From an uncultured Chlamydiae bacterium (GTDB taxonomy: Bacteria; Chlamydiota; Chlamydiia; Chlamydiales; JAJFMA01): DNA of 64,000 nt. Shown in pieces: positions 5,336-62,523 of the stretch. The notes under the pieces were generated by a model. It was given only the letters and a program-made list of their open reading frames with translations. It did not search any database and was not told the origin of the DNA. Position 1 is the stretch's first letter; the number at the start of each line of letters is the position of its first letter. Location of the stretch: the NCBI GenBank assembly GCA_963713615.1, contig CAVQMM010000001.1:192001-256000 (forward strand), written 5' to 3'. The position numbers were made by a program, and so were the translations under genes.

Positions 5336-5735
5336 GACGAACTGGACTCATTGAGACGATTGCAGAATTCGTTTGAGATGTCAGATGATTAATAAAGCCG
5401 TCACAATCGTGTCTCGGCGCGAAGCGCTTTGGAGTGCGCGTCGCTCGCGACCGCTTTGGATTTGGGCGAGCCTATTGAATCGCGCGCCGTTCTTTGGAGG
5501 CCTCAGACTCTCAAGGTATCCCCAGAGCGGCAAGTCACGCTTCGTATCATGCCCACTTCGCCCAAATCCAAAGCGGTCGCGAGCGACGCGCACTCCAAAG
5601 CGCTTCGCGCCGAGACGCGATTGTGAGGGTTTTAATGGCTGTTTCGGCGTCACAAGGAATTCTGCAATCGTCTCGATTGGACAAAATGGCCTTTTTGTCC
5701 ATTTCGTCCAATTAGTCCAATCAGTCCAGTTCGTC
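5336..5735. repeat. Nested palindromic repeat (three layers of inverted repeats around a REP-like doublet)
   Basis: IR pairs 5336-5348/5723-5735, 5353-5370/5657-5674 and 5401-5469/5558-5626. Confidence 0.9.
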
Positions 5736-5820: not shown

Positions 5821-6483
5821 ATGTGTTTTTCAGCAGAAGCGAGCTTCATTGGTGCCGCGGTATTGGGAACGGTGGGTTATTGTACTCTTACCGAGGTTAC
5901 CGATAAGCGACAGCTACCTCTAGCAATCATTCCCTTGCTTTTCGCCTTTCAGCAGGTTTGTGAAGGGGTGATATGGATGTTTCTCAACAACAATCTAGCG
6001 CCCAGCGCTGCTTTCTGGGTATGCACCTACGCCTACGTTTGGCTGTCATATATCATGTGGCCCACGTGGTTTTCTTTTAGCTCTTTTCTGTTGGAAAAGG
6101 TCGCTTGGCGCCGTAAGGCCTTAGCCGCTTGTATCGTTGGTGGGCTGTTCGTAAGCGGTTACGATCTCAATTACGTAATTCATAGCACCATGGATCCGCA
6201 TATCGTTCAGAACAGTGTTTACTATTTGCAGGGGAGCAAGCTGATTGGGGCGATGTACCTGGCTAGTGTCGCCTTAGCATTCTTATTTTCGTCCACTCCA
6301 TATATGTGGTTAATGGGCGCTGCAGCACCATTTTCCTTTGGGCTGAGTGCCTATCTCTACTGGAATAATTTTGCTTCGGTATGGTGTTTTGCGGCTTCTG
6401 TATTAAGTATTATCATCTTTTTTGCAATAAGGGAGGACTCCAAACAACGCGTTTTGGTACGCGATTATACCAGGCGCGGTTAG
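5821..6483 (+). CDS. Membrane protein, DUF6629-like
   Basis: MCFSAEASF start, IPLLFAFQQVCEG, SVWCF motifs. Confidence 0.7.
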   Translation: MCFSAEASFIGAAVLGTVGYCTLTEVTDKRQLPLAIIPLLFAFQQVCEGVIWMFLNNNLAPSAAFWVCTYAYVWLSYIMWPTWFSFSSFLLEKVAWRRKALAACIVGGLFVSGYDLNYVIHSTMDPHIVQNSVYYLQGSKLIGAMYLASVALAFLFSSTPYMWLMGAAAPFSFGLSAYLYWNNFASVWCFAASVLSIIIFFAIREDSKQRVLVRDYTRRG

Positions 6484-7730
6484 ATTTGACAGCCCATTGA
6501 ATTGCCGGCAATCCATCCTGTGGTCCATGCGGCCTGAAAGTTAAAGCCACCAGTGACCCCGTCGATATCTAGGATTTCGCCTGCAAAATAGAGTCTTGGA
6601 CATTTGCGGCTTTCCATAGATGTAAAGTTAACCTCTTTCAAAGCAATGCCGCCACTGGTGACGAATTCCTGCTTGTAGGTTGTTTTGCCAGCAAGTTGGT
6701 AGGTGTCTCGATAGAGACGCTGGATCAACTGATTCATTTGCGCTTTGGAGAGATCGGCCCAACGTTCTTCAGGTGAGAGATCACAAAGAAAGACCAAGCG
6801 CTGCCAAAGTTTGCGAGGCAACTCTGAAAAAGGGGAATTGGCTTGGATTGTTCGAGCACCCTGACCCTCCTTGGCTTTTGTCAAGGCTTCACGAATGTGG
6901 TTCTCTGAGCGACTTCCCAGCCAATGAATGGCCACTTCACAACGGTAATCAATCGCATGCAAAGCTCGGGCTCCCCATGCGGAAAGCTTAAGTACTGCAG
7001 GACCGCTGAAACCCCAATGCGTGATTAATAATGGACCTTCTTGCTTCAGTCTACCCATGGGCAACTCCACCAGTGCTGATTCTACCGAAACGCCTGCAAG
7101 ATCGTTTAAGGGGCTATCAGGAATGTTAAAAGTAAAGAGGGAAGGTACGGGATCAATAACCGTATGTCCTACCTGTTTGGCTAGGTCAAAACCTCCACGA
7201 GTGCCACCTGTAGCTAATAAAACTCCGGCACAATCGATCGTCTCTCCATTTGAAAGGCTTAGCTGTAACCCGGTAGCGGTCGTGTGAAGTTCCTTAACAC
7301 CACATTCGAGACGTAAGTCGACTTTTAGCCGTTGCAGCTCAGACATCAGGCAGTCTATGATCGTCTGTGAGTTATCAGTGATGGGAAACATGCGCCCATC
7401 ATCTTCAGCTTTAATAGGTACCCCTCGAGATTCGAACCACGCTATAGTATCGCGTGGCTGAAAGCGGGTGAAAGGACCACGCAGTTCGTGGTGGCCCCTG
7501 GGATAGTTTTTGACAAGCTCGGCAGGATCAAAACAGTGGTGGGTCACATTGCAGCGTCCACCTCCAGAGATGCGAACTTTGGCCAAAGGTTGGCGTGTCT
7601 TTTCCAGCAAGATGATGCGACTATTAGGATTAGCCTCAGCACAGGCTAATGCTCCAAAAAAACCAGCAGCACCACCACCGACGACTACGTATGTGTTCAT
7701 AGGATATTTCCATTTATTGACATGAGTCAT
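6480..7730 (-). CDS. NAD(P)/FAD-dependent oxidoreductase, HI0933/YhiN family
   Basis: GGGAAG, KVRISGGGRCNVT, TGGFNFQAAW. Confidence 0.92.
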   Translation of the reverse strand: MTHVNKWKYPMNTYVVVGGGAAGFFGALACAEANPNSRIILLEKTRQPLAKVRISGGGRCNVTHHCFDPAELVKNYPRGHHELRGPFTRFQPRDTIAWFESRGVPIKAEDDGRMFPITDNSQTIIDCLMSELQRLKVDLRLECGVKELHTTATGLQLSLSNGETIDCAGVLLATGGTRGGFDLAKQVGHTVIDPVPSLFTFNIPDSPLNDLAGVSVESALVELPMGRLKQEGPLLITHWGFSGPAVLKLSAWGARALHAIDYRCEVAIHWLGSRSENHIREALTKAKEGQGARTIQANSPFSELPRKLWQRLVFLCDLSPEERWADLSKAQMNQLIQRLYRDTYQLAGKTTYKQEFVTSGGIALKEVNFTSMESRKCPRLYFAGEILDIDGVTGGFNFQAAWTTGWIAGNSMGCQI

Positions 7731-7777
7731 CCATTCTGTGCTGTTTGTCGGGTGAATGTCCAGTAATTAAAATGGAT

Positions 7778-8727
7778 GGACTAAAGGACGAAAGGGACAT
7801 AAAAAGACATAAAGAGGTAATTGCAGAAGTCCGATTCTCCGAAGTCAATTTCCTGAAAATCGGATGCCGGTGAAGAGAGAGTCATTCCCTTCCCAGGCCC
7901 GAAGGGTCGATATTGCAACAGGCCATGGCATCGCCATGGTATACGCCAGGAAGGGATTTCGCAGTCTGAAGGACTGCTACAAGACGCCAGTTTACAAACA
8001 CCATTTATGCATGCGCTTTATGGCAGCCCTACAGGCTGCTAAAACCATTTTGGCATATACCATGGCGATGCCACATAGGCCTCAACCTAAGCCTAACAAT
8101 CGTATCTCGGCGCGCAGCGCTTTGGAGTGCGGTCGCTTGCGACCGCTTTGGGTTCCTTGCGACGGTCGTGTGCAACGGCATTACTATAATTCCCTAAGGG
8201 TAAAATAGTTAGTACATGCAGCCTTCGACGAATCCATACAATGCCGTTTAGCATTGCCGTCCCAAGGAACGAAAAGCGGTCGCAAGCGACCGCACTCCAA
8301 AGCGCTGCGCGCCGAGATACGATTGTGAAGTCCTAAGTCATTGAGATATAAGCTCAAAAGACCTGTTAGGTTGAGGCCTATGTGGCGATGCCATGGTATA
8401 CGCCAGGAAGGGATTTCGCAGTCTGAAGGACTGCTACAAGACGCCAGTTTACAAACACCATTTATGCATGCGCTTTATGGCAGCCCTACAGGCTGCTAAA
8501 ACCATTTTGGCATATACCATGGCGATGCCATGGCCTGTTGCAATATCGACCCTTCGGGCCTGGGAAGGGAGAAAAGCCTGTCTTTCCAGACTGGATAGTG
8601 CCATACCACTTAAGCTCTCTAGAATCGCCTTCTCACAAAAAAAAGTGATTTTTTTTCAAAGAATCGATCCATGAGAGCCCAAATACTTCTGCAATTACCT
8701 CTTTATGTCCCTTTCGTCCTTTAGTCC
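7778..8727. repeat. 950-bp multilayer nested palindrome (composite 1)
   Basis: IR pairs 7778-7803/8702-8727, 7814-7830/8685-8701, 7886-7943/8513-8570, 8074-8090/8366-8382, 8096-8149/8273-8326; two direct copies of a 148-bp module at 7926-8073 and 8383-8530. Confidence 0.95.
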
Positions 8728-8808
8728 CTTCAATCGCTTGGACCGTTAAAGGAAAAATGTGATAGGGTGGCCTTATCCGCGGATTCTCAACAGACCAAGG
8801 AGGTTATC

Positions 8809-9822
8809 ATGCCTAAGCCCACCAATCCAAAGCGTGTTCTGGTGACAGGTGGAGCCGGATATGTCGGCAGCCAAGTATGTAAACTCCTTAGTCAAGCAGG
8901 CTTCGAACCTGTAACCATTGATAATTTGTCCAAAGGAAGAAGAGAAGCCGTGCGTTGGGGACCCTTGGAAGTCGGGGATATCTGCGATCGAAGTTTTGTA
9001 TCCAGAGTCATTAAGACTTATCAGCCTATTGGTGTCCTCCACTTTGCCGCAAACACCGAAGTCGGAGAATCGGTTTTTCGACCAGATATTTTTTATGAAA
9101 ACAACGTAGTTGGAACCTTGCGCCTGCTGGAAGCTATGCAGGAGAACGGGCTCAACGTATTGGTCTTGTCAAGCACCTGCGCTACTTATGGTGACGTACA
9201 AGACATTCCAGTGAAGGAGTCCGCTCCTCAGAAGCCAATTAATCCATACGGCTGGACTAAGCTCATGTGCGAGCAGTTGCTCCGTGATTTTCGCATCGCC
9301 TACAAGCTTAGATATGTTGCCTTCCGTTATTTCAACGTAGCCGGGGCAGACCTCGACGGTGAGCTGGGCGAAGAGCACCAACCGCCTTGCCATGTCATTC
9401 CCATTATTTTTGATGCCGCTGTGGGTAGAACTCCCTATTTTTCCGTCTTTGGTACGGATTATCCGACCCCAGATGGAACAGGCATTCGCGACTACATCCA
9501 TGTGGTCGATTTGGCCGATGCTCACATCAGAGCCTTGAAGTACCTATTAGACCACGATGAGGCTCATGAGCTTAACTTGGGTTCAGAGCATGGATTTTCT
9601 GTTAAACAGCTCGTCGAAGAGACGCAAAAGATCAGTGGCAAGAAGGTCCCAGTACGTTACGTAGCACGGCGTGCTGGAGATGCTCCTTGCTTAATTGCTG
9701 ATTCGCACAAGGCCCTCGAAGTTCTAGGATGGAAGCCCACGCATTCTGATATCACGACCATCATGAGGACTGCCTGGCAGTGGCACGTAAAAACATGCCA
9801 GCAGACAACCCCTACGCATTAG
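8809..9822 (+). CDS. galE: UDP-glucose 4-epimerase
   Basis: TGGAGYVG, YGWTK (YxxxK), FRYFNVAGA, DGTGIRDYIHV. Confidence 0.95.
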   Translation: MPKPTNPKRVLVTGGAGYVGSQVCKLLSQAGFEPVTIDNLSKGRREAVRWGPLEVGDICDRSFVSRVIKTYQPIGVLHFAANTEVGESVFRPDIFYENNVVGTLRLLEAMQENGLNVLVLSSTCATYGDVQDIPVKESAPQKPINPYGWTKLMCEQLLRDFRIAYKLRYVAFRYFNVAGADLDGELGEEHQPPCHVIPIIFDAAVGRTPYFSVFGTDYPTPDGTGIRDYIHVVDLADAHIRALKYLLDHDEAHELNLGSEHGFSVKQLVEETQKISGKKVPVRYVARRAGDAPCLIADSHKALEVLGWKPTHSDITTIMRTAWQWHVKTCQQTTPTH

Positions 9823-11681: not shown

Positions 11682-12358
11682 TCTTGCAGCCCTTGAAATG
11701 CATAAAGTTGTATATTCTTAGTCACATATACTACAAAAAAGAGAGTAAAAAAGCAACCATTACTCGCATGGCATCAGGGCGATTGCATTTATAGACAACT
11801 ATTGAGAATCCCATATAGGCCTTAGCTTAACAAAAAAACGGCTTTTATATCCCATTAAATAGTAGCTTGTTAAAATCTAAAAAATGTTGTAGATACGTCT
11901 AAAGTGAGGTAATTGCAAAATTATTTGAGCCCTTGAGAATCGATTCTCGGGAAAAAAGGTTACCTTTTTTTGTGAGAAGGCGATTCTAGAGAGCTTAAGT
12001 GGTATGGCACTATCCAGTCTGGAAAGACAGGCTTTTCTCCCTTCCCAGGCCCGACATCCCGCTAGAATTTTTCAAGATTTTTCGTAGCTTTCAGGCGATT
12101 TTTCGATGCCAATTCCTTCGGTTTTGAAACTTTTAATTATTTTCTAATTTTGCTAAATTTATAGAGCCGAAGTAGAGTAGCCGTGCTCCTTTCAACTGCG
12201 AAGGGACACGGTGAATTTACTTAGGAAGGTTGTATACAACTCCTATGGGGTTGCCGAAGCAGAGTAGCCGTGCTCCTTTTCTGCTCAGCTAACATCGCCG
12301 AATTTGCTGACCTTGTTCATTCAGGCCAAACAGAACAAAGCCCGTTTGCTAAACTAAC

Positions 12359-13555
12359 TCAGTCTTCCTTCTGACGGTAATCCCTGTCATGTATGAGTAT
12401 CGACCATATTACTCTTATCATATGACGGGCAAATGCTCGTACTGCTTGGTTATGTTTTTTTCCCTCTGCTCTCTTCTTCTTGTAGTACTGTGCAGCCTCA
12501 TCACATAGTTGTATATGTCGAGCAGCTCCGGTCATCATAGCTCCCTTTCCCCTCCAGTTAATATTTCGAGGCGATCGAGACCCCTCATATTGGCCAGAAC
12601 TCTTGTTCAGAATTCCTATTCCCAAGTAGAGCGCTAGACTAGCCTCCGACTTAAACCGATCGATACTACCAATCTCTCCAGCGAGTTCTGCGGCACAAAT
12701 GGAACCATATCCAGGAATAGATTCAATCCGAGATGCTATCTTGGATTGTGGGATCAAACCCTCTATCAATACCTCCAACTGCGCTATTTCATCTAGCATC
12801 TCGAGTAGCCTTCTGACATCTCGTACTATTAATTTTCCTATCCACTCAACCTTTGAAGAGAACTTAGCCGTCTTTTGCCATTTCTGAATTTCCTCTGCAT
12901 AAACCTCTCCAACGCCCTTGATTTGCAACAGGCTTCTTTTTTGCATTCGAAGCAACATGGTCATGTCTTCCTTCGAAGCAAGAAATCGTAGAAACCAAAG
13001 ATTTGCTGGATTTTTTGTAATAGACAGTAGACCGGGGCAAACAGCCTGTAGATCCCCTTGAAGTCGATTTATGATTCTTGTCTTTTCTTTTACCAACTCT
13101 CTACGACGCCTTGAAATATGTTTAAGTTGCTCGTTGCATACCGGTGGAGGCTCTACTTTCTGCAGAATATTTTTTGCCAACGGTAAGGTCTCTTGAACTT
13201 GAAACAAGCTAAAAATAGCCCAAGCGTCAATTGGATCTGTTTTGGCTGGACCAGGAAAAACTTCCTTAAATCTAGCCAATTTCATGTTGTTGACACTATA
13301 CAAAGAATATCCGTGATCAAGAGCATATCTATCGATGGGTCTAGCATAGCCATTAAACCCCTCCATAGCCATGACAACAGGCATGTTATAGGAAATTCTA
13401 AGCTTCTCAATTTTCTCAAAAAACTGCTCAATGTCTTCAGAAGTGTGGTTTAGATAAAATCCATCGATGCGTTCTCCTGTGGACAAGCCTATGGCTACAT
13501 AGTGTCGAACGCTACCGATATCTAGACAAATACGAAGTTCGGACTGATTTTGCAT
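12359..13555 (-). CDS. IS110-family DEDD transposase/recombinase
   Basis: RuvC-like DEDD residues (CLDIG, AMEG, KTDPID); C-terminal Tnp domain (SIPGYG, AGEIG..RF, SSG serine motif). Confidence 0.95.
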   Translation of the reverse strand: MQNQSELRICLDIGSVRHYVAIGLSTGERIDGFYLNHTSEDIEQFFEKIEKLRISYNMPVVMAMEGFNGYARPIDRYALDHGYSLYSVNNMKLARFKEVFPGPAKTDPIDAWAIFSLFQVQETLPLAKNILQKVEPPPVCNEQLKHISRRRRELVKEKTRIINRLQGDLQAVCPGLLSITKNPANLWFLRFLASKEDMTMLLRMQKRSLLQIKGVGEVYAEEIQKWQKTAKFSSKVEWIGKLIVRDVRRLLEMLDEIAQLEVLIEGLIPQSKIASRIESIPGYGSICAAELAGEIGSIDRFKSEASLALYLGIGILNKSSGQYEGSRSPRNINWRGKGAMMTGAARHIQLCDEAAQYYKKKRAEGKKHNQAVRAFARHMIRVIWSILIHDRDYRQKED

Positions 13556-13599
13556 GATAAATGCCCTGTTAAGTGTTTGTGAGCGTTAAATTTCACCCA

Positions 13600-13741
13600 A
13601 ATTCCACTTCTACTTACAGAGCCACAATCAGAAGATTGGCACCATCCCGAACGGAATTATTGGATGATGCAAACGACGAAGGCGGCATATCGGGCCAGGC
13701 GAACAAACATTCGCTAAGGGCACACGGCCACACCTTCGTCG
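13600..13741 (-). ncRNA. Putative bridge RNA core (target-binding loop, then donor-binding loop)
   Basis: Two stem-internal loop-stem hairpins (13674-13741, 13600-13658) whose loops match the target and donor junction sequences. Confidence 0.8.
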
Positions 13742-14379
13742 GCCAAAATGATACCTTAGAGAAATGTTTTTTGTCTTTTCCTATTACCGTCGATAATCGT
13801 TTGCAAAATCCTATGGTAGAAGGGTCGATATTGCAACAGGCCATGGCATCGCCATGGTATATGCCAGGAAGGGATTTCGCAGTCTGAAGGACTGCTACAA
13901 GACGCCAGTTTACAAACACCATTTATGCATGCGCTTTATGGCAGCCCTACAGGCTGCTAAAACCGTTTTGGCATATACCATGGCGATGCCACATAGGCCT
14001 CAACCTAACAGGTCTTTTGAGCTTATATCTCAATGACTTAGGACTTCACAATCGTATCTCGGCGCGCAGCGCTTTGGAGTGCGGTCGCTTGCGACCGCTT
14101 TTCGTTCCTTGGGACGGCAATGCTAAACGGCATTGTATGGATTCGTCGAAGGCTGCATGTACTAACTATTTTACCCTTAGGGAATTATAGTGATGCCGTT
14201 GCACACGACCGTCGCAAGGAACCCAAAGCGGTCGCAAGCGACCGCACTCCAAAGCGCTGCGCGCCGAGATACGATTGTTAGGCTTAGGTTGAGGCCTATG
14301 TGGCGATGCCATGGCCTGTTGCAATATCGACCCTTCGGGCCTGGGAAGGGAATGACTCTCTCTTCACCGGCATCCGATT

Positions 14380-14573
14380 TTGGAATAGGTTCGCGTCAAA
14401 TCCTCTCCATTCCTACCCCTTTCCACTTTAAGCTCATTGTCAGACCCTATTTGCATTTAGAAGGTGGGAGTGATCCTGCATATCATGCCGCGAAGCGATC
14501 CTGCACATCCTGTTAAAGTCCTTTTTAACCATATCTACAACATCTATCATGTATTCAATAAGTTGATGCGTAT
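14380..14573. repeat. 'ATCCTGCATATC..GCCGCGAAGCGATCCTGC' repeat family copy
   Basis: Similar to 49097-49283; partial copies at 29339-29389 and 38611-38683 (reverse). Confidence 0.85.
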
Positions 14574-32842: not shown

Positions 32843-32913
32843 TAACCTAAGCCTTCACAATCATCACTAGGCGCGCAGCGCTTTCGAGTGCGGTCGCTTG
32901 CGACCGCTTTTCG
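32843..32913. repeat. Degenerate arm of the GGAG-REP element
   Basis: Similar to 8084-8150. Confidence 0.7.
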
Positions 32914-33073
32914 GGCCTTATTCACCTTTGCGGTCAGTTTTCGGTCGACTGCAAAAGGATCGTCTGTCGCGTTTTGCTCCTCGGACATAGCTGGCGCTAT
33001 GCCCTCGTCACAAACCACGACATCCGACCTTTTTCGTCCGACCGAAATTCTGACCGTAAAGGTGAACAAGGCC
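32914..33073 (+). mobile_element. 160-bp MITE, copy 1
   Basis: GGCCTT termini, about 35-bp imperfect TIRs, 8-bp TSD GCTTTTCG (32906-32913/33074-33081). Confidence 0.92.
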
Positions 33074-43934: not shown

Positions 43935-46900
43935 TTGAAAAGATGGTGTGTTATGGAAATGGATGCTGCTAGATCAGAGCCTATAAAGGAGAAACCACAA
44001 TCTTTTAGTGTAAAAATTCGCAATGCTGTGAGGGGTAAATCAGCACCGGCGATCGACAAGGCTGAACGTGACCGAATAAAGGTTGAAATCGTTGCCAAAA
44101 AAGCTGAATTAAAAGAGTTAAAGCAACATGCTGAGGTCTTAAAGCATCGAATTCATGGGAAACATGATCAGGGTGACAAGACTGTTTTACAGGTTGCTGG
44201 ACGACAATTTAAGTTTACTAAGAAGAAAGAGCTTCCCATATCAGAACGCATGAATGCGGCGATGTTATTGAAGGATCTCAAAAATAGCATACAAGCCAAG
44301 AAAAATGAGATTAAGGATCTAGAAAAACCGTTAGAGGGAACGGCTTCAAAGGTTGTTAAAGGCGGCTTTGGGATCGTCCCTAGGGTATTTGGCTTCCTTA
44401 CCAAGCATGGTGTTGAGGGGCGAATTGTCAATCCTAGTTCGGGTATTACAACGCTTGGGGATCCTCTTACTTACTATATTATCCTCATGGACCATGTGTG
44501 GTCGAGTATTTGGGTAAAGAGAACAGGCCAAAATATCCTTCAAGTAAAGACGCTGAACGCTATGATAGGCAAAGCTGAGGTGCGTTTAGACGAGCTGAAG
44601 ACGCAGATAGACCACGGTCGGGGCAGTCCAGATCAGCTAGAGGCTTTAGAGGAAGAGCATAGAAATCTAGAGCGTGCGGTGAAGGTCTTCAAGGAGGAGG
44701 TGGATCGCCTTCCGGTGGCCGAAAGCCTTCAGCAAGTCCTGGGTGAGTCGGTAAAAATTCTGTGGTCCTATGCTAGGATTGTCCAAGGCCTTTGTTATGT
44801 CCTACCTCTGTTCATTAATACTTCGTTGGCAGTGGGTTCGGCTCTTTCAAATACGATCACCATTGCTGCGGTGGCAACTATTCCGATATCGGTATTTTTG
44901 TCTGTGAGGGGAATTAGTCAATCCATCAAGAATTTGGCTAATTGCCATAAAGATCGACAATTTACTTCTGGCCTAAAGAATAATGAAATTGGGGCCATGC
45001 GTGCCAAGGCAAGTGGTTTTGAGGACATTTTGTCCATGGCAGAGCTAACCGACCCGGCCTCTAGAGCGCGCAATGACACGGCGATCAATTATTTAGAGCA
45101 GGCCAATCGTCAAGTCGCTGCGGCGCAAGAGCGAATGACGAAAATAGACGACGATCTTCTCAATGCGCGCATTGAGGGCAAAGAAACCATTGCTGCTGTC
45201 AAGGAGGAGCGCAAAAAACTTCAGGCTGACATCGATTCTATTCACAAGGGAATGGTGGATAACATCGGAAGGCTTGCGGAGCAACCGGGTGCTGATAGGG
45301 CAACATTAGGTTTGATTAGCGATAAGCTAGTGGCGAAGAGGATTTTGTTAACCAACGCCACTTCCCTTGAGCAGACAATGGTTCCCTATTTACAACAAAA
45401 ACTTAGAACGAAAGTGGCGATGAATTTAATCCACCTCACAGCTGAAGGAATTAGTGTCGTAGGATCCACCTTAGTGGTCAGTGGGTTGATTCTTACCCCG
45501 GTTCATGGCATTGGCATTCCTCTAGTTACCGCTGGAGCGGGCCTGGCTTTTGTGAGGTTAGGCGTTCAATTCGGCGCGGCCTTCCTGGTTAAGCGTATCA
45601 TGTTGATGCAGATGGGTAAGGACCGCATTCCCACAAAAGAGTTCGATGTTGAATTTAGGGAAAGAATTATCGATGAAGCCAAGAATTGGGATGCTCTCGA
45701 AAGGGCGGGTGCCACAGAAAATACTACCGCATCGCTTATGTTTAATATGTTGAAAAAGCATTACGTTTCTATCCCATCCACTTGGGGACCGAAGGAATGG
45801 GCTCAAGCCTTAGCTAATTCCCCTCCAGGAAGCAAGGAATGGGAACATTATGATGAAGCATTAACAGCAATGCGAAATCGATCAGAAGCGCGTTTCTTAG
45901 GGGAATCCGTATCCAACTGGGTTGCTAACAAGATGAAGGCTAATCTTGGCGTGAAAAAGACCACCAAGGTTGGTTATGTGGAATCAGTTGTTTCCAGGTC
46001 TGAGGATAATAAATATGAATTGACACCCCATCCCAATGACACATCAGGTGCTTCTAAGGTTATATTTAACACCAGCAAAAAAATCGATGCGAAGACTAGC
46101 CATGATCTGCTGAAGGCGATTAGTGACTCCGGAAAAAATGTTGAAGACTTAATGGCCGACAAGAAGAAAATCATTGTTGAGGTCAAGACAGGGGGCGAGG
46201 TTCAAAAATTCGAGATTAGGAAGGCAAAGCCAAAAACTGGCATCGCTAACGTAGTGATGAAGGATTTTATTCGTTCTACAAAAATCAGTGGAGCGCTTGA
46301 GGTAGAGGTTAAAGTTGCCAGTCCCAACGCTAAGAGTGATCTGGTTTTGAATATAGCTCCTCCGGAGGTGATAGAGCAGTCACATGTAGGACCCCGATCT
46401 CGTGGTGAGCTGTTTGATACTATTCTAGAAGATGGGTTATTCAAAGACCCTTATACAGAGCTGAGCAGTAAAGCGATGCAGCAGCTGGAGGGCAATTTTT
46501 CGCAGAAGGATCTCAGCGCAAAGCAACTTGCAGCACTTCCAGAATACTGCTTAGTGAAGGTAGGGGATAACTTGGCTATCGCTAAGGTCAAGGAGATCCC
46601 CGCCAATGCGGCTCCAAATCGTGAGGTCGTTGAAGCATACCGGCAGCAGTTGGTGTCGACATATGGAGAAAGTAAAGTTCGGTACATTGAACACCTTTAC
46701 GACATCAATTTGACTGACATGGCGACGAACGGTAGCCCCTTGCTTACCGAGGTCGTTTACAGGATGAACATAGGTGTCGGAAACCTAGAAATTCAAGACA
46801 TCAACGAGCTTGCCACAGGAATTGCGGCACTTACTCGACAAGGTCCTGATCAGAGGCCTTCCAACGTGCCGCTCAAGACCCTTGCTCTGGAGGAGTCTGG

Positions 46901-49034
46901 ACTTCCCTTGCAGGCTTGGCGCGGTATCATGAATCATTTTCAGGAACAGGGCAATGCTAATCCCACCTTGGGGGATCTGCGACAGTGGGCAGCTGCTACG
47001 GGATTCGCGAATAGGGGTACTTCGGAATTAAGTCCTCAGGCATTTGCTGAAGCAACCAAGATTCTAAGCTTTTCTCCTGCAGAGAGGGAGGAACAGTATA
47101 CGGGCAGAAAGATCCTTCACTATATCCACAGCGCCTATAGTGTAGCGGGCGTAACTGTCTACAAACCTTGGGTTGATCAGCAGGAGTTGTTGCAGGCCTT
47201 TGGCGATATCGATAGTTACTATAAGAACTACGATCTAAAGAAAAACCCTAATTTGCCAGATCCTATGGAATACTACACTGAGGTCTTAGCGCAGGTTATC
47301 TGTAAAAAGCACTTAGTGCGTTCTCATCCCACAGAAAATTATCGTGTTGGAGCGCTCATTCCTGCACCTCCTGATTTAAAAACCGGCCAGCCACGCTGGT
47401 ATGTGGTGGCTGGAGCCTATAACAACGGTCATGGCAACTTTAATTATGTGTTGGAGCCTGCTTGCAATGACCCAAGCCTGCCAGCCATCAAACTGTGTAG
47501 AAGTACTGCTAGTGATCCCTATGCGCTGGATGGCGGTGCTTCGATTAGAAGTGATATTAATCCTTTAAATGCTCCCGGGTATTTGGGACGCGACTTATTA
47601 GATTCTTATGAAGAACAGTTTTTCAAGGATCGCACCATACCCTTATGGAGTGCTTACAGTGAGAATGCCGCCAACCTGTTGCATCAGATAAATCCAGCAA
47701 ACCCCGATGTCAATAACGTGAAGCAGGTTTTTGCTGAGCTCAATCATGCAAACCACTATTTGGAGCAGTCCATGGTACCCCCGCGTCGAACACTCATGGA
47801 CGTGGTCAGCCACAATGATTATGCTCTCATGGAGCTTGCCAAGGAAGCTTATCGATTCCGCAGTCCGGTAGATGCTGATAATCTGAAATTGCTATTCAAG
47901 TACGATTCCACAAAGGCAAAAGACATCAGCCTCGATCAGCAGGTATCTGACGCCCGGAAGATGAAAGTTGCGGTTGAAAAACTATTAGAGTCTAATATCT
48001 CGCCTCAGAAAAAACAGATGTGTACCTCCATTCTGGCGGACCTTGAGCGGGTGATAAATCCACCGGTTGCTGATCAGCCAGCACTGATAGCACAACTTAA
48101 GGAGATCGAAGGGGCGGCTCTAAGAGCATTATCGGACACTCCTCCAAGGACTGCAGAGGCCCTAGCTTCAATAACCCAATGGCAAAATATCATCGAGACC
48201 CACGCAAGGGATACTGGTGAGAATAGCGCCAGCAAGAAAAAGCAAGATGTGTTGTATGTTGGGCATAGCTTAGGAGGCGCCCTAGCCCAAAGATATATGG
48301 CAGAGCAAACATTGTTGAAAGACCGCCTTCCAGTGGCTGGATCTCACACTACTTTGTATGCCTTCGATGCCCCTGGCATCAATGAGGTAGACAACCGTTC
48401 TTATATGAGCAAGGGGAGAGAAAATGCTGAGCTAATCAAGCAGATGAATGTCGAGCCTAAGGTCATTCAGCGTTATGAGGGCGGTGACTTCATCCCTGGA
48501 GCCGGTGGTGGAGAGCATCTTGGCACAGTAAGTTCGGAAAGAGAACTCCGCGAGGCTGGGCAATGGCTACTCTTTGATGCCTCGGTGAGCACTCCTCTGG
48601 AAGAAGTAAGCAATCCCATTATCGGTAAGAGCGAGTCGGCCCATGCAACGCAATTTGCCTCTGGCATGAAGGAGGGAAGGAGAGTCGGTGGTGTCAGTGT
48701 TCCGGCTGATTTTAAGAGAGTCTGGATGGATGGATTGCAACAGCATGATTTAGACCACCAAAAAGTCAGAAAATATCGTAAGCTCGATCGAACATTTAGT
48801 CTCGGAATGGTGACCACTAAGGTGATTGGAGGGGTTCTCCTCGGAATGGGAAAAAGAATAGTCACCCACCCTACACTTTTTGGACGGGTGAAGAGTTTCA
48901 GAGGACCTGAGGAGCTAGAACACGGGCTACACCGCGAGTGGTGGAGATTGACAGATGAACGCGGAGCCTTTGCTGTCAATTTAGAAGGCATTCAAAGCGC
49001 TCCCCAGAATGAAGACCACCCCCTTGCTGCATGA
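43935..49034 (+). CDS. Large multidomain protein: coiled coils, hydrophobic segments, C-terminal lipase-like alpha/beta hydrolase
   Basis: 1699-aa ORF; YVGHSLGGALAQ nucleophile motif, FDAPG, GDFIP. Confidence 0.75.
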   Translation: MKRWCVMEMDAARSEPIKEKPQSFSVKIRNAVRGKSAPAIDKAERDRIKVEIVAKKAELKELKQHAEVLKHRIHGKHDQGDKTVLQVAGRQFKFTKKKELPISERMNAAMLLKDLKNSIQAKKNEIKDLEKPLEGTASKVVKGGFGIVPRVFGFLTKHGVEGRIVNPSSGITTLGDPLTYYIILMDHVWSSIWVKRTGQNILQVKTLNAMIGKAEVRLDELKTQIDHGRGSPDQLEALEEEHRNLERAVKVFKEEVDRLPVAESLQQVLGESVKILWSYARIVQGLCYVLPLFINTSLAVGSALSNTITIAAVATIPISVFLSVRGISQSIKNLANCHKDRQFTSGLKNNEIGAMRAKASGFEDILSMAELTDPASRARNDTAINYLEQANRQVAAAQERMTKIDDDLLNARIEGKETIAAVKEERKKLQADIDSIHKGMVDNIGRLAEQPGADRATLGLISDKLVAKRILLTNATSLEQTMVPYLQQKLRTKVAMNLIHLTAEGISVVGSTLVVSGLILTPVHGIGIPLVTAGAGLAFVRLGVQFGAAFLVKRIMLMQMGKDRIPTKEFDVEFRERIIDEAKNWDALERAGATENTTASLMFNMLKKHYVSIPSTWGPKEWAQALANSPPGSKEWEHYDEALTAMRNRSEARFLGESVSNWVANKMKANLGVKKTTKVGYVESVVSRSEDNKYELTPHPNDTSGASKVIFNTSKKIDAKTSHDLLKAISDSGKNVEDLMADKKKIIVEVKTGGEVQKFEIRKAKPKTGIANVVMKDFIRSTKISGALEVEVKVASPNAKSDLVLNIAPPEVIEQSHVGPRSRGELFDTILEDGLFKDPYTELSSKAMQQLEGNFSQKDLSAKQLAALPEYCLVKVGDNLAIAKVKEIPANAAPNREVVEAYRQQLVSTYGESKVRYIEHLYDINLTDMATNGSPLLTEVVYRMNIGVGNLEIQDINELATGIAALTRQGPDQRPSNVPLKTLALEESGLPLQAWRGIMNHFQEQGNANPTLGDLRQWAAATGFANRGTSELSPQAFAEATKILSFSPAEREEQYTGRKILHYIHSAYSVAGVTVYKPWVDQQELLQAFGDIDSYYKNYDLKKNPNLPDPMEYYTEVLAQVICKKHLVRSHPTENYRVGALIPAPPDLKTGQPRWYVVAGAYNNGHGNFNYVLEPACNDPSLPAIKLCRSTASDPYALDGGASIRSDINPLNAPGYLGRDLLDSYEEQFFKDRTIPLWSAYSENAANLLHQINPANPDVNNVKQVFAELNHANHYLEQSMVPPRRTLMDVVSHNDYALMELAKEAYRFRSPVDADNLKLLFKYDSTKAKDISLDQQVSDARKMKVAVEKLLESNISPQKKQMCTSILADLERVINPPVADQPALIAQLKEIEGAALRALSDTPPRTAEALASITQWQNIIETHARDTGENSASKKKQDVLYVGHSLGGALAQRYMAEQTLLKDRLPVAGSHTTLYAFDAPGINEVDNRSYMSKGRENAELIKQMNVEPKVIQRYEGGDFIPGAGGGEHLGTVSSERELREAGQWLLFDASVSTPLEEVSNPIIGKSESAHATQFASGMKEGRRVGGVSVPADFKRVWMDGLQQHDLDHQKVRKYRKLDRTFSLGMVTTKVIGGVLLGMGKRIVTHPTLFGRVKSFRGPEELEHGLHREWWRLTDERGAFAVNLEGIQSAPQNEDHPLAA

Positions 49035-57124: not shown

Positions 57125-57417
57125 GCGGATGGACTAAAAGACCAAAGGGACATGAAAGACATAAAGAGGTAATTGCAAAATTATTTGAGCCCTTGAGAAT
57201 CGATTCTCAGAAAAAAAGGTTACCTTTTTATGCGAGAAGGCGATTCTGGAGAGCTCAAATGCCATGGCCTGTTGCAATATCGACCCTTCGGGCCTGGGAA
57301 GAGAATGACTCTCTCTTCACCGGCATCCGATTTTCAGGAAATTGACTTCGGAGAATCGGACTTCTGCAATTACCTCTTTATGTCCTTTTCGTCGTTTTGG
57401 TCCTTTCGTCCATCCGC
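57125..57417. repeat. Short version of the nested palindrome (composite 3), with an empty IS110 target
   Basis: GGAC-periodic and GAGGTAATTGC outer arms; inner layers absent; CGACCCT-TC-GGGCC at 57281-57294. Confidence 0.9.
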
Positions 57418-60283: not shown

Positions 60284-60536
60284 TAGGAATTTTTATCACA
60301 GAGGACACAGAGATTTAGAACAGAGAGGATTTTTTGTTTTAGTGTTTAAGAACGGTCCCTGGAGTCCATTATTGTCCATAAGGTCCATGTTGTCCATTAC
60401 TGTCCATGAAGCCTAGGCGTTAATGGACAATATGGACCTCATGGACAATAATGGACTCTATGGACTCGGACCGTTTTTAACACTAAAACAAAAAAACACT
60501 TCTCTCTTTCTGTGTCCTCTGTGGTAAAAATTCCTA
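60284..60536. repeat. Palindrome with CACAGAG arms and five GTCCAT units per arm
   Basis: GTCCAT at 60364/74/83/92/60402, ATGGAC at 60423/32/41/51/60, centre GCCTAGGC. Confidence 0.9.
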
Positions 60537-62077: not shown

Positions 62078-62523
62078 CGGGGGAAGGAGAGGGAAAAGAG
62101 AGGGGAATTAGGAATTTTTTACAGAGGACACAGAGACGCCGAGAGAGGAAAGGAAGATAGGAAAGAAGGAAGGAGAGGATTTTTTGTTGGTCTTTAAAAA
62201 TCGTCCATGGTGTCCATGAAGTCCACTATGAGGTAATTGCAGAATTCTTAGCGATGCCGAAACAGGCATTAAAGCCCTCATAATTGTGTCTCGGCGCGAA
62301 GCGCTTTGGATTTGGGCGAAGTTGGCATTGCAAGAAACGTAACCCTTCTCTCTAGGGGTAACTGTGGGGGGGTGCAGCCTCCGTAGAACGGTGCGCGATT
62401 CAATAGGCTCGCCCAAATCCAAAGCGGTCGCGAGCGACACGCACTCCAAAGCGCTGCGCGCCGAGATACGATTGTGTAAAAATTCCTCTTTCCTATTCCC
62501 CTTTCTCCCCTCTCCTCCCCCCA
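62078..62523. repeat. Composite repeat: CACAGAG shell around an inverted, partly deleted copy of the 5353-5674 element
   Basis: 62230-62475 is homologous to the reverse complement of 5402-5674; one REP is lost between CGCTTTGGA repeats. Confidence 0.85.

Follow-up and report, generated by a model that had tools for sequence, protein, structure and literature searches.

The 950-bp gap at positions 7778-8727 of the analyzed window (64,000 nucleotides, C1:192001-256000 of the 3.97-Mb genome G000, which comprises three contigs and is 99.1% complete) consists of five unrelated non-coding repeats, designated Z, A, B+C, D, and E, that are stacked in a fixed order, probably as a result of successive transposition, with each repeat landing in, or being captured by, another (estimated probability, ∼0.8). 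The genome is probably chlamydial: DnaA and an acyl-ACP ligase had PRK12422 and PRK06334, both chlamydial models, as their top NCBIfam hits, with scores below the cutoff in each case. The gap separates a flavoprotein gene (6480-7730, minus strand) from galE (8767-9822, plus strand). Because every layer is an inverted repeat, the whole takes the form of a concentric palindrome. From the outside in, its perfect inverted repeats comprise 26 bp in the GGAC arms (7778-7803/8702-8727), 25 bp around the A arm (7806-7830/8685-8709), 58 bp (7886-7943/8513-8570), 21 bp around the 17-bp D arm (8070-8090/8366-8386), and 54 bp in layer E (8096-8149/8273-8326), which bears out the concentric layers described in an earlier sequence-only reading. 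That reading considered almost the entire spacer symmetric, but the concentric arms account for only 452 of the 950 bases (48%). The asymmetric spacers that it noted between the layers do exist, but they are mostly an overlooked 148-bp direct repeat (7926-8073 and 8383-8530) plus the unique halves of the A element. When folded as single-stranded DNA, the segment 7770-8735 reaches -335.9 kcal/mol, versus -125.6 ± 5.4 kcal/mol for 20 shuffled sequences (z, -39).

A BLAST self-search of the genome returned 130 to 450 hits per base in layers A to E, ∼50 to 90 in the Z arms, and 1 to 4 just outside the locus, so the modules do recur elsewhere in other combinations, as had been suggested. Module hits cover 107,379 bases, or 2.7% of the genome. 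The window itself contains a second composite (11906-14381, no strand assigned), in which a B arm is split by a 1,765-bp IS110 (12054-13818; transposase, 12359-13555, minus strand), and a Z[A] copy whose interior is cut down to one B arm (57127-57415, no strand assigned). An inverted pair at 11884-11903/14524-14543 surrounds the second composite and matches the interior ends of a D-like MITE subfamily.

At the gathering score, Rfam models recognized only a tRNA in the 64-kb window, and none matched positions 7700-8800 at E values up to 5, which leaves a kinship of these arms with Acido-Lenti-1 unsupported. A 114-aa open reading frame at 7864-8208, which has no Pfam match, was taken as spurious. 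The numbers of predicted promoters (3, versus 1.8 ± 1.1 in shuffled sequences) and terminators (3, versus 1.2 ± 1.1) were also recorded. Elsewhere in the window, a 1,699-aa open reading frame (43935-49034) had no match in the NCBIfam search.

The five layers and their candidate partners

The outermost layer, Z, is a pair of GGAC arrays with a 9-bp period (left arm, 7773-7813, plus strand; inverted right arm, 8702-8732, minus strand), the apparent target of A. The genome contains 146 such arrays, compared to 2 in each of two shuffled versions of C1, and 51 of the 146 are located near an A end. Both genes in this genome that encode four-helix-bundle proteins (TIGR02436 plus TIGR04258) are flanked by these arrays, and so are 21 of the 23 four-helix-bundle loci in other genomes of the phylum (9 of them on both sides), versus 1 of 17 controls. 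This association suggests that the Z arrays are tied to the four-helix-bundle genes. A Z doublet without an A insert is found at window positions 60374-60446. In a genome from another family, locus L146 (G250:C2:959-1408) is an independent perfect nest with A-type ends, arms similar to those of subclass 1.2 (see below), and GGAC arrays in the center; therefore, Z can also be the innermost layer. Two genes of the GxxExxY type (PF13366), L314 (C1:1855144-1855536) and L315 (C1:1921739-1922134), each lie between their own inverted short-period repeats, and motifs similar to these repeats are dispersed, e.g., near window positions 62100-62170.

Layer A (left part, 7814-7885, and right part, 8571-8701, both on the plus strand; terminal inverted repeats, 7814-7830 and 8685-8701) is a predicted MITE with ends like those of an IS1182/IS5-type DDE insertion sequence and with 4-bp duplications. 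Among 122 pairs of A ends in the genome, 94 enclose B arms, forming the 432-bp A[B+C] unit. Direct repeats of 4 to 5 bp flank 42 of these 94 pairs (with shuffled flanks, the mean was 6.4 and the maximum in 2,000 trials was 16); 3 pairs, including the one at this locus, have inverted flanks and 49 have neither, so that 52 of the 94 lack a direct repeat. GGAC or GTCC occurs within 12 bp of 72 of the 94 left and 82 of the 94 right ends, against a background of 4.8%. Among 301 genomes of the phylum, 12 have the same ends around other cargo; in G003 and G250 they surround arms that, by inspection, resemble subclass 1.2 arms. At 3 of 117 metagenome loci, they are found on both sides of a DUF772-plus-DDE transposase of 366 to 377 aa. 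The full-length A-ended insertion sequences L212, L243, and L262 (1,447 to 1,509 bp) score over the Pfam cutoffs for DUF772 and DDE_Tnp_1; the best NCBIfam hit of the A-ended transposases is IS1182, at 72 to 86 bits, below the cutoff of 270, with IS5 models below their cutoffs as well. None of the three full-length elements has a clean 4-bp repeat. Searches of this genome for the cognate DDE transposases of A and D (PF05598, NF033592, NF033551, inspection of the ends of PF01609 genes, and tblastn with the cognate proteins) gave no candidate; such transposases were seen only in other genomes.

The next layer combines the B arms (left, 7886-7925, plus strand; right, 8531-8570, minus strand) with the 148-bp segment C (7926-8073, plus strand), which has an 11-bp hairpin, S, at both ends (7926-7936 and 8063-8073); a second, directly repeated C follows at 8383-8530 (plus strand). 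The 58-bp repeat, previously counted as a layer of its own, belongs together with the 148-bp segment to a single 228-bp B+C element, because in genome G023 a homologous Y1 gene lies between perfect inverted arms that align with B, S, and the left part of C. The alternative that C is a separate insert in B was rejected, given the alignment of all three parts to one such arm.

In the genome under study, a 150-aa Y1 gene (C1:3243391-3243843) is directly followed by diverged B+C copies. Its product has the DHVH, WQ, and Y---Q--HH motifs of TnpA-Y1 subclass 1.2, for which the criteria applied were DH[IV]H, WQ, Y---Q--HH, a length of ∼148 aa, and a low copy number; all three motifs are present in 77 of the best 80 of 276 homologues. 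Among the loci of these best 80 of 276, 75 had both flanks available, and inverted repeats across the Y1 gene were found in 67 of the 75 (0 of 59 distal controls), with an S-type motif beside the gene in 22 of the 75 (again, 0 of 59 controls); these loci are related by kinship and are not independent. B+C thus can be tied, as putative gene-less arms, to a TnpA-Y1 gene of subclass 1.2, a candidate mobilizer. Outside A, B+C is nearly confined to the cluster beside its Y1 gene, which counts against this gene as the spreader. A second subclass 1.2-like gene (L010, C1:3872945-3873400, 151 aa) has inverted arms of another repeat family with ∼30 copies. Two long Y1 genes, L012 and L013 (C1:1465781-1466737 and C1:1580931-1581920; 318 and 329 aa), are flanked by short GGGGTCAG-type inverted repeats and resemble the description of TIRYT/subclass 2.1. 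The four Y1 genes of the genome other than the 150-aa gene and the RAYT described below were dismissed as partners, as they have other flanks.

Layer D with its cargo, D[E], is a 309-bp unit (8074-8382, plus strand) with an 11-bp direct repeat of S on both sides, and it can be classified as a putative IS4-family MITE with IS231-type ends: these agree with the IS231 signature CAT-N7-AA-N2-TAA at each of its 8 specified positions, and the 11-bp target duplication is within the IS231 range of 10 to 12 bp. Of 95 pairs of D ends in the genome, 81 hold the E core, and 80 of these 81 are inserted in S, the 11-bp hairpin of B+C, with 71 exact direct, 5 inverted, and 4 imperfect repeats involving five S variants. 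In 7 of 9 and in 2 of 2 informative cases, the duplicated variant is the one that the host carries at its other S, and insertions occur at either S and in both orientations (7, 8, 24, and 17 of 56). In each of the 14 hosts with a C below 90% identity, D[E] retains an identity of 99.0% or more, and 24 of 64 full copies are identical, with a mean of 1.7 differences in 309 bp; the element looks young, the product of a recent burst. Taken together, the D[E] data favor repeated targeted insertion.

In the searches of this genome mentioned above, no IS4 transposase over the cutoff was found for D. In genome G003 of the same genus, IS4 transposases over the NCBIfam cutoff and with YREK motifs lie inside or beside D-like ends; out of 17 bases, 4 are different from those of D for L116 and 2 for L121 (a single end). 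In G136, from another family, locus L172 has ends identical to those of D, placed within an S-like hairpin and accompanied by an 11-bp repeat. Because no cargo-free D was seen in this genome, we only infer that E was captured by D. At C1:1755746, 3554954, and 3556502, D ends surround a repeat cargo other than E.

The innermost layer, E (8096-8326, no strand assigned), contains inverted hairpins at 8129-8146 and 8276-8293, with a GGAG tag one base from the stem. The earlier view of this hairpin as REP-like fits well: E can be described as a REP doublet of the REPIN type with a putative cognate RAYT, because a RAYT elsewhere in the genome is flanked by E-type arms. This 176-aa Y1 protein (C1:3256585-3257115; NF047646, 83.9 bits with a cutoff of 80) is encoded between three inverted E-type arms on each side, one of which aligns with the arm in the window at 55 of 59 bases. 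The genome contains 383 E-type hairpins, many of them in doublets with another interior. Arms of this type with a different interior are seen at window positions 5403-5624, 32857-32919, and 62282-62475; elsewhere, the interior has a G/C run of variable length.

The hairpins also harbor full-length insertion sequences. The E hairpin has received 17 of 18 IS66 copies (with an 8-bp repeat), the E arm has received 8 of 8 IS1634 copies (6-bp repeat), and all 9 IS110 copies, including the one in the window, occupy the same point of the B arm. Every layer matches a different gene family, and the proposal of one undescribed repeat system did not hold up; nor do all the modules derive from a single described MITE or IS remnant, as there are five families. 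The statement that the mobilizer is unknown needs correction: there is no single mobilizer, and two candidate Y1 genes are present elsewhere in the same genome.

Copy number and the form of the locus

Many complete 752-bp composites are nearly identical across the genome. None of 109 copies falls within a long open reading frame. Of the gaps that hold these copies, 57 are codirectional, 30 convergent, and 22 divergent, versus 799, 280, and 388, respectively, which indicates a mild lean toward convergent gaps. The interiors of the copies vary freely, and some copies are disrupted by insertion sequences. In 30 relatives, matches extend over at most ∼85 bases in any genome. Tandem arrays of A[B+C], with five to nine units and constant spacers of 41 or 22 bases, are located at C1:476525-478910, 1173286-1175476, 2273505-2280485, and 2600817-2603417.

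The locus in question is a minority form, in which C is inverted relative to A (10 versus 69 of 129 cores) and doubled. The second C is a local duplication, because both cores carry two alleles that are absent from the rest of the genome; inter-locus recombination as its origin was rejected because of these locus-private alleles. Perfect 148-bp repeats around D are found at two further loci, and several loci have D with C absent, while no C-C tandem without D was detected among the junctions listed, with a loose pattern. Both the form with 148-bp repeats and the C-less form would be expected from unequal sister exchange at S or, alternatively, from an insertion that spans an extruded hairpin.

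Origin of the nest

The nest likely formed because the mover of each repeat prefers to insert into the hairpin of another. The anatomy of the stack, the copy numbers, the target duplications, and the gene family next to each type of end are direct observations. From sequence comparison, we infer the mobility of the layers, as well as the order of events, the enzymes involved, and the selfish rather than functional status of the stack. A would have taken up B+C once, and A[B+C] would then have spread into GGAC arrays by means of an IS1182/IS5-like transposase. D would similarly have taken up E once, and D[E] may then have burst, via an IS4 transposase, into S of many of the existing A[B+C] copies. 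Recombination between copies would account for inverted interiors, exchanged flanks, and tandem arrays, and a local duplication of C around D would have shaped the present locus; IS110, IS66, and IS1634 would have landed in the same hairpins afterwards. Both DDE transposases are absent from the assembly and therefore were likely lost or transiently supplied. Several observations count against this scheme, foremost that the DDE transposases are missing although D[E] looks recent; in addition, more than half of the A pairs (those 52 of 94) lack a direct repeat, as a clean one is lacking in the three full-length A-ended elements, cargo-free D was not seen, and B+C outside A is nearly confined to its Y1 cluster. 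The stack is probably selfish DNA and of little cost to the host, since each insertion falls in an intergenic repeat that already exists.

An assembly artefact can hardly be credited. It is true that no contig in the public short-read runs searched spans the whole locus, that the unique flanks of the locus are mostly uncovered in runs X1, X2, X3, and X5, and that the local C duplicate with its two private alleles is known from the assembly alone. Nevertheless, four independent public runs (three from peat and one from soil; three DNA-type and one RNA library) gave contigs that match the modules and read through the A-B, C-D, D-E, E-D, and B-A junctions, as well as the 41-base spacer of the tandem arrays and an IS66 junction, and the copies differ from each other in alleles and target repeats. 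A function kept by the host, as a structured RNA or a regulatory element between the two divergent genes, is highly improbable. The intergenic position of the copies, the E hairpins, which by score are terminator-like on both strands, and the short pieces present in an RNA run could be read in this way, but the contigs of that run do not demonstrate transcription, no Rfam family matches, none of the 30 relatives matches more than the ∼85 bases mentioned above, and the copies differ freely in what they contain and are interrupted by insertion sequences.

It is also unlikely that the nest had just one or a few origins and was multiplied afterwards by whole-unit copying, or that D[E] was spread by gene conversion, without repeated targeted transposition. 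Such a history would fit the many nearly identical complete composites, the tandem arrays of up to nine units, the unmatched flanks of 52 of the 94 A pairs, the recombinant pairings of A ends, and the missing DDE transposases. It is at odds with the presence of D[E] in four configurations, in young and diverged hosts alike, with the duplicated S that tracks the host's own allele, and with L172, in the genome of another family, where an S-like hairpin that shows an 11-bp repeat holds the same D end. Whole-unit copying probably did add copies but cannot account for the configurations, the tracking of S alleles, or L172. Quite unlikely, in turn, is a single undescribed system in which one enzyme of the HUH/RAYT type builds and moves all the layers. 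The two Y1 genes flanked by two of the layers, the absence of the DDE partners, and the ability of all layers to fold into hairpins speak for it; A and D, however, have target duplications of fixed length and share their ends with elements that encode DDE transposases, whereas IS200-type Y1 enzymes are not known to make fixed-length target duplications.

With successive targeted transposition as the preferred reading, a broader targeting ladder of eight element families can be put forward tentatively. It would start from the gene-less arms of four-helix-bundle cassettes, into which an IS1182-like MITE inserts with the repeat of a supposedly repeat-less Y1 subclass as its cargo; the hairpin of this repeat would be nearly the sole target of an IS4 MITE, and the REP doublet inside that MITE would in turn be nearly the sole target of an IS66 and an IS1634. 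If so, the subclass 1.2 gene and the four-helix-bundle gene would each drive their own repeat systems, IS66 could be specific for hairpins, and the three loci with 148-bp repeats around D would carry long target duplications left by insertion across an extruded hairpin.

Relation to known systems

Nested REPINs and REP-targeting insertion sequences have already been published (PMC3116915, PMC3337134; PMC1525189). Unlike the REPIN/RAYT clusters described in the main texts of Bertels and Rainey (2011; PMC3116915, PMC3337134), which typically consist of two REPINs, the present locus nests five families; two of its layers have ends of the DDE type, and this E variant is in most cases carried as cargo by an IS4-type MITE. 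The composite resembles BIMEs and the GTAG/CGTC REP dimers (Di Nocera et al., 2013; PMC3733652) in being an intergenic palindrome with REP dimers and with repeats that flank tyrosine transposase genes. It differs from those systems in lacking a regular alternation of one REP family and in its GGAG tag, which does not appear in the main text of either PMC6006769 or PMC3733652; the word "nested" does not occur in the main text of the latter paper, where nesting is not described. A BIME is defined by REPs of one family that alternate at regular spacing and are joined by conserved linkers, and the composite does not have this structure: with five unrelated families, two of them with target duplications, it supports the suggestion of independent modules that nest beyond an ordinary REP doublet or BIME.

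Similar comparisons can be made for the individual layers. Table 1 of Quentin et al. (2018; PMC6006769) lists REP as "no" for subclass 1.2. The gene discussed here has the DHVH, WQ, and Y---Q--HH motifs, the length (150 aa), and the low copy number of that subclass in the published text but, unlike its published members, adjoins B+C repeats, and inverted flanks are found in 67 of 75 relatives; the REP association thus appears to depart from the published description of the subclass and not from the protein class. In the text of De Palmenaer et al. (2008; PMC2266710), the IS231 subgroup of IS4 is found almost only in the Bacillus cereus group. D shares with it the end signature, the 10- to 12-bp duplication, target specificity, and extra DNA inside; unlike that subgroup, D has no transposase. 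REP-targeting families listed in the text of Tobes and Pareja (2006; PMC1525189) are IS3, IS110, IS4, IS256, and IS5. As in that work, IS110 and IS4 families insert here at a fixed point of a palindromic repeat; in contrast to it, E is targeted by IS66 and IS1634, neither of which is mentioned in the text of that paper, and the unit of IS4 type is a MITE that carries a REP doublet. In a search that had ISfinder and most subscription journals outside its scope, no published report of REP targeting by IS66 or IS1634 was found. Likewise, no published description of a five-family nest, of repeats for subclass 1.2, or of four-helix-bundle arms was found, with supplements, ISfinder, and most subscription papers outside the search.

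The stack can be seen as nested, likely selfish DNA in a new form of unusual depth. It indicates that a deep palindrome can form without a dedicated system, when selfish elements that favor each other's hairpins pile up. The locus also supplies several pairs of enzymes and targets: a Y1 subclass published as repeat-less, a four-helix-bundle protein with its arrays, and IS66 and IS1634 with their near-absolute preference for REPs. Finally, a REP doublet that moves as the cargo of a DDE-type MITE bears on the models of REPIN populations that assume copying by RAYT.
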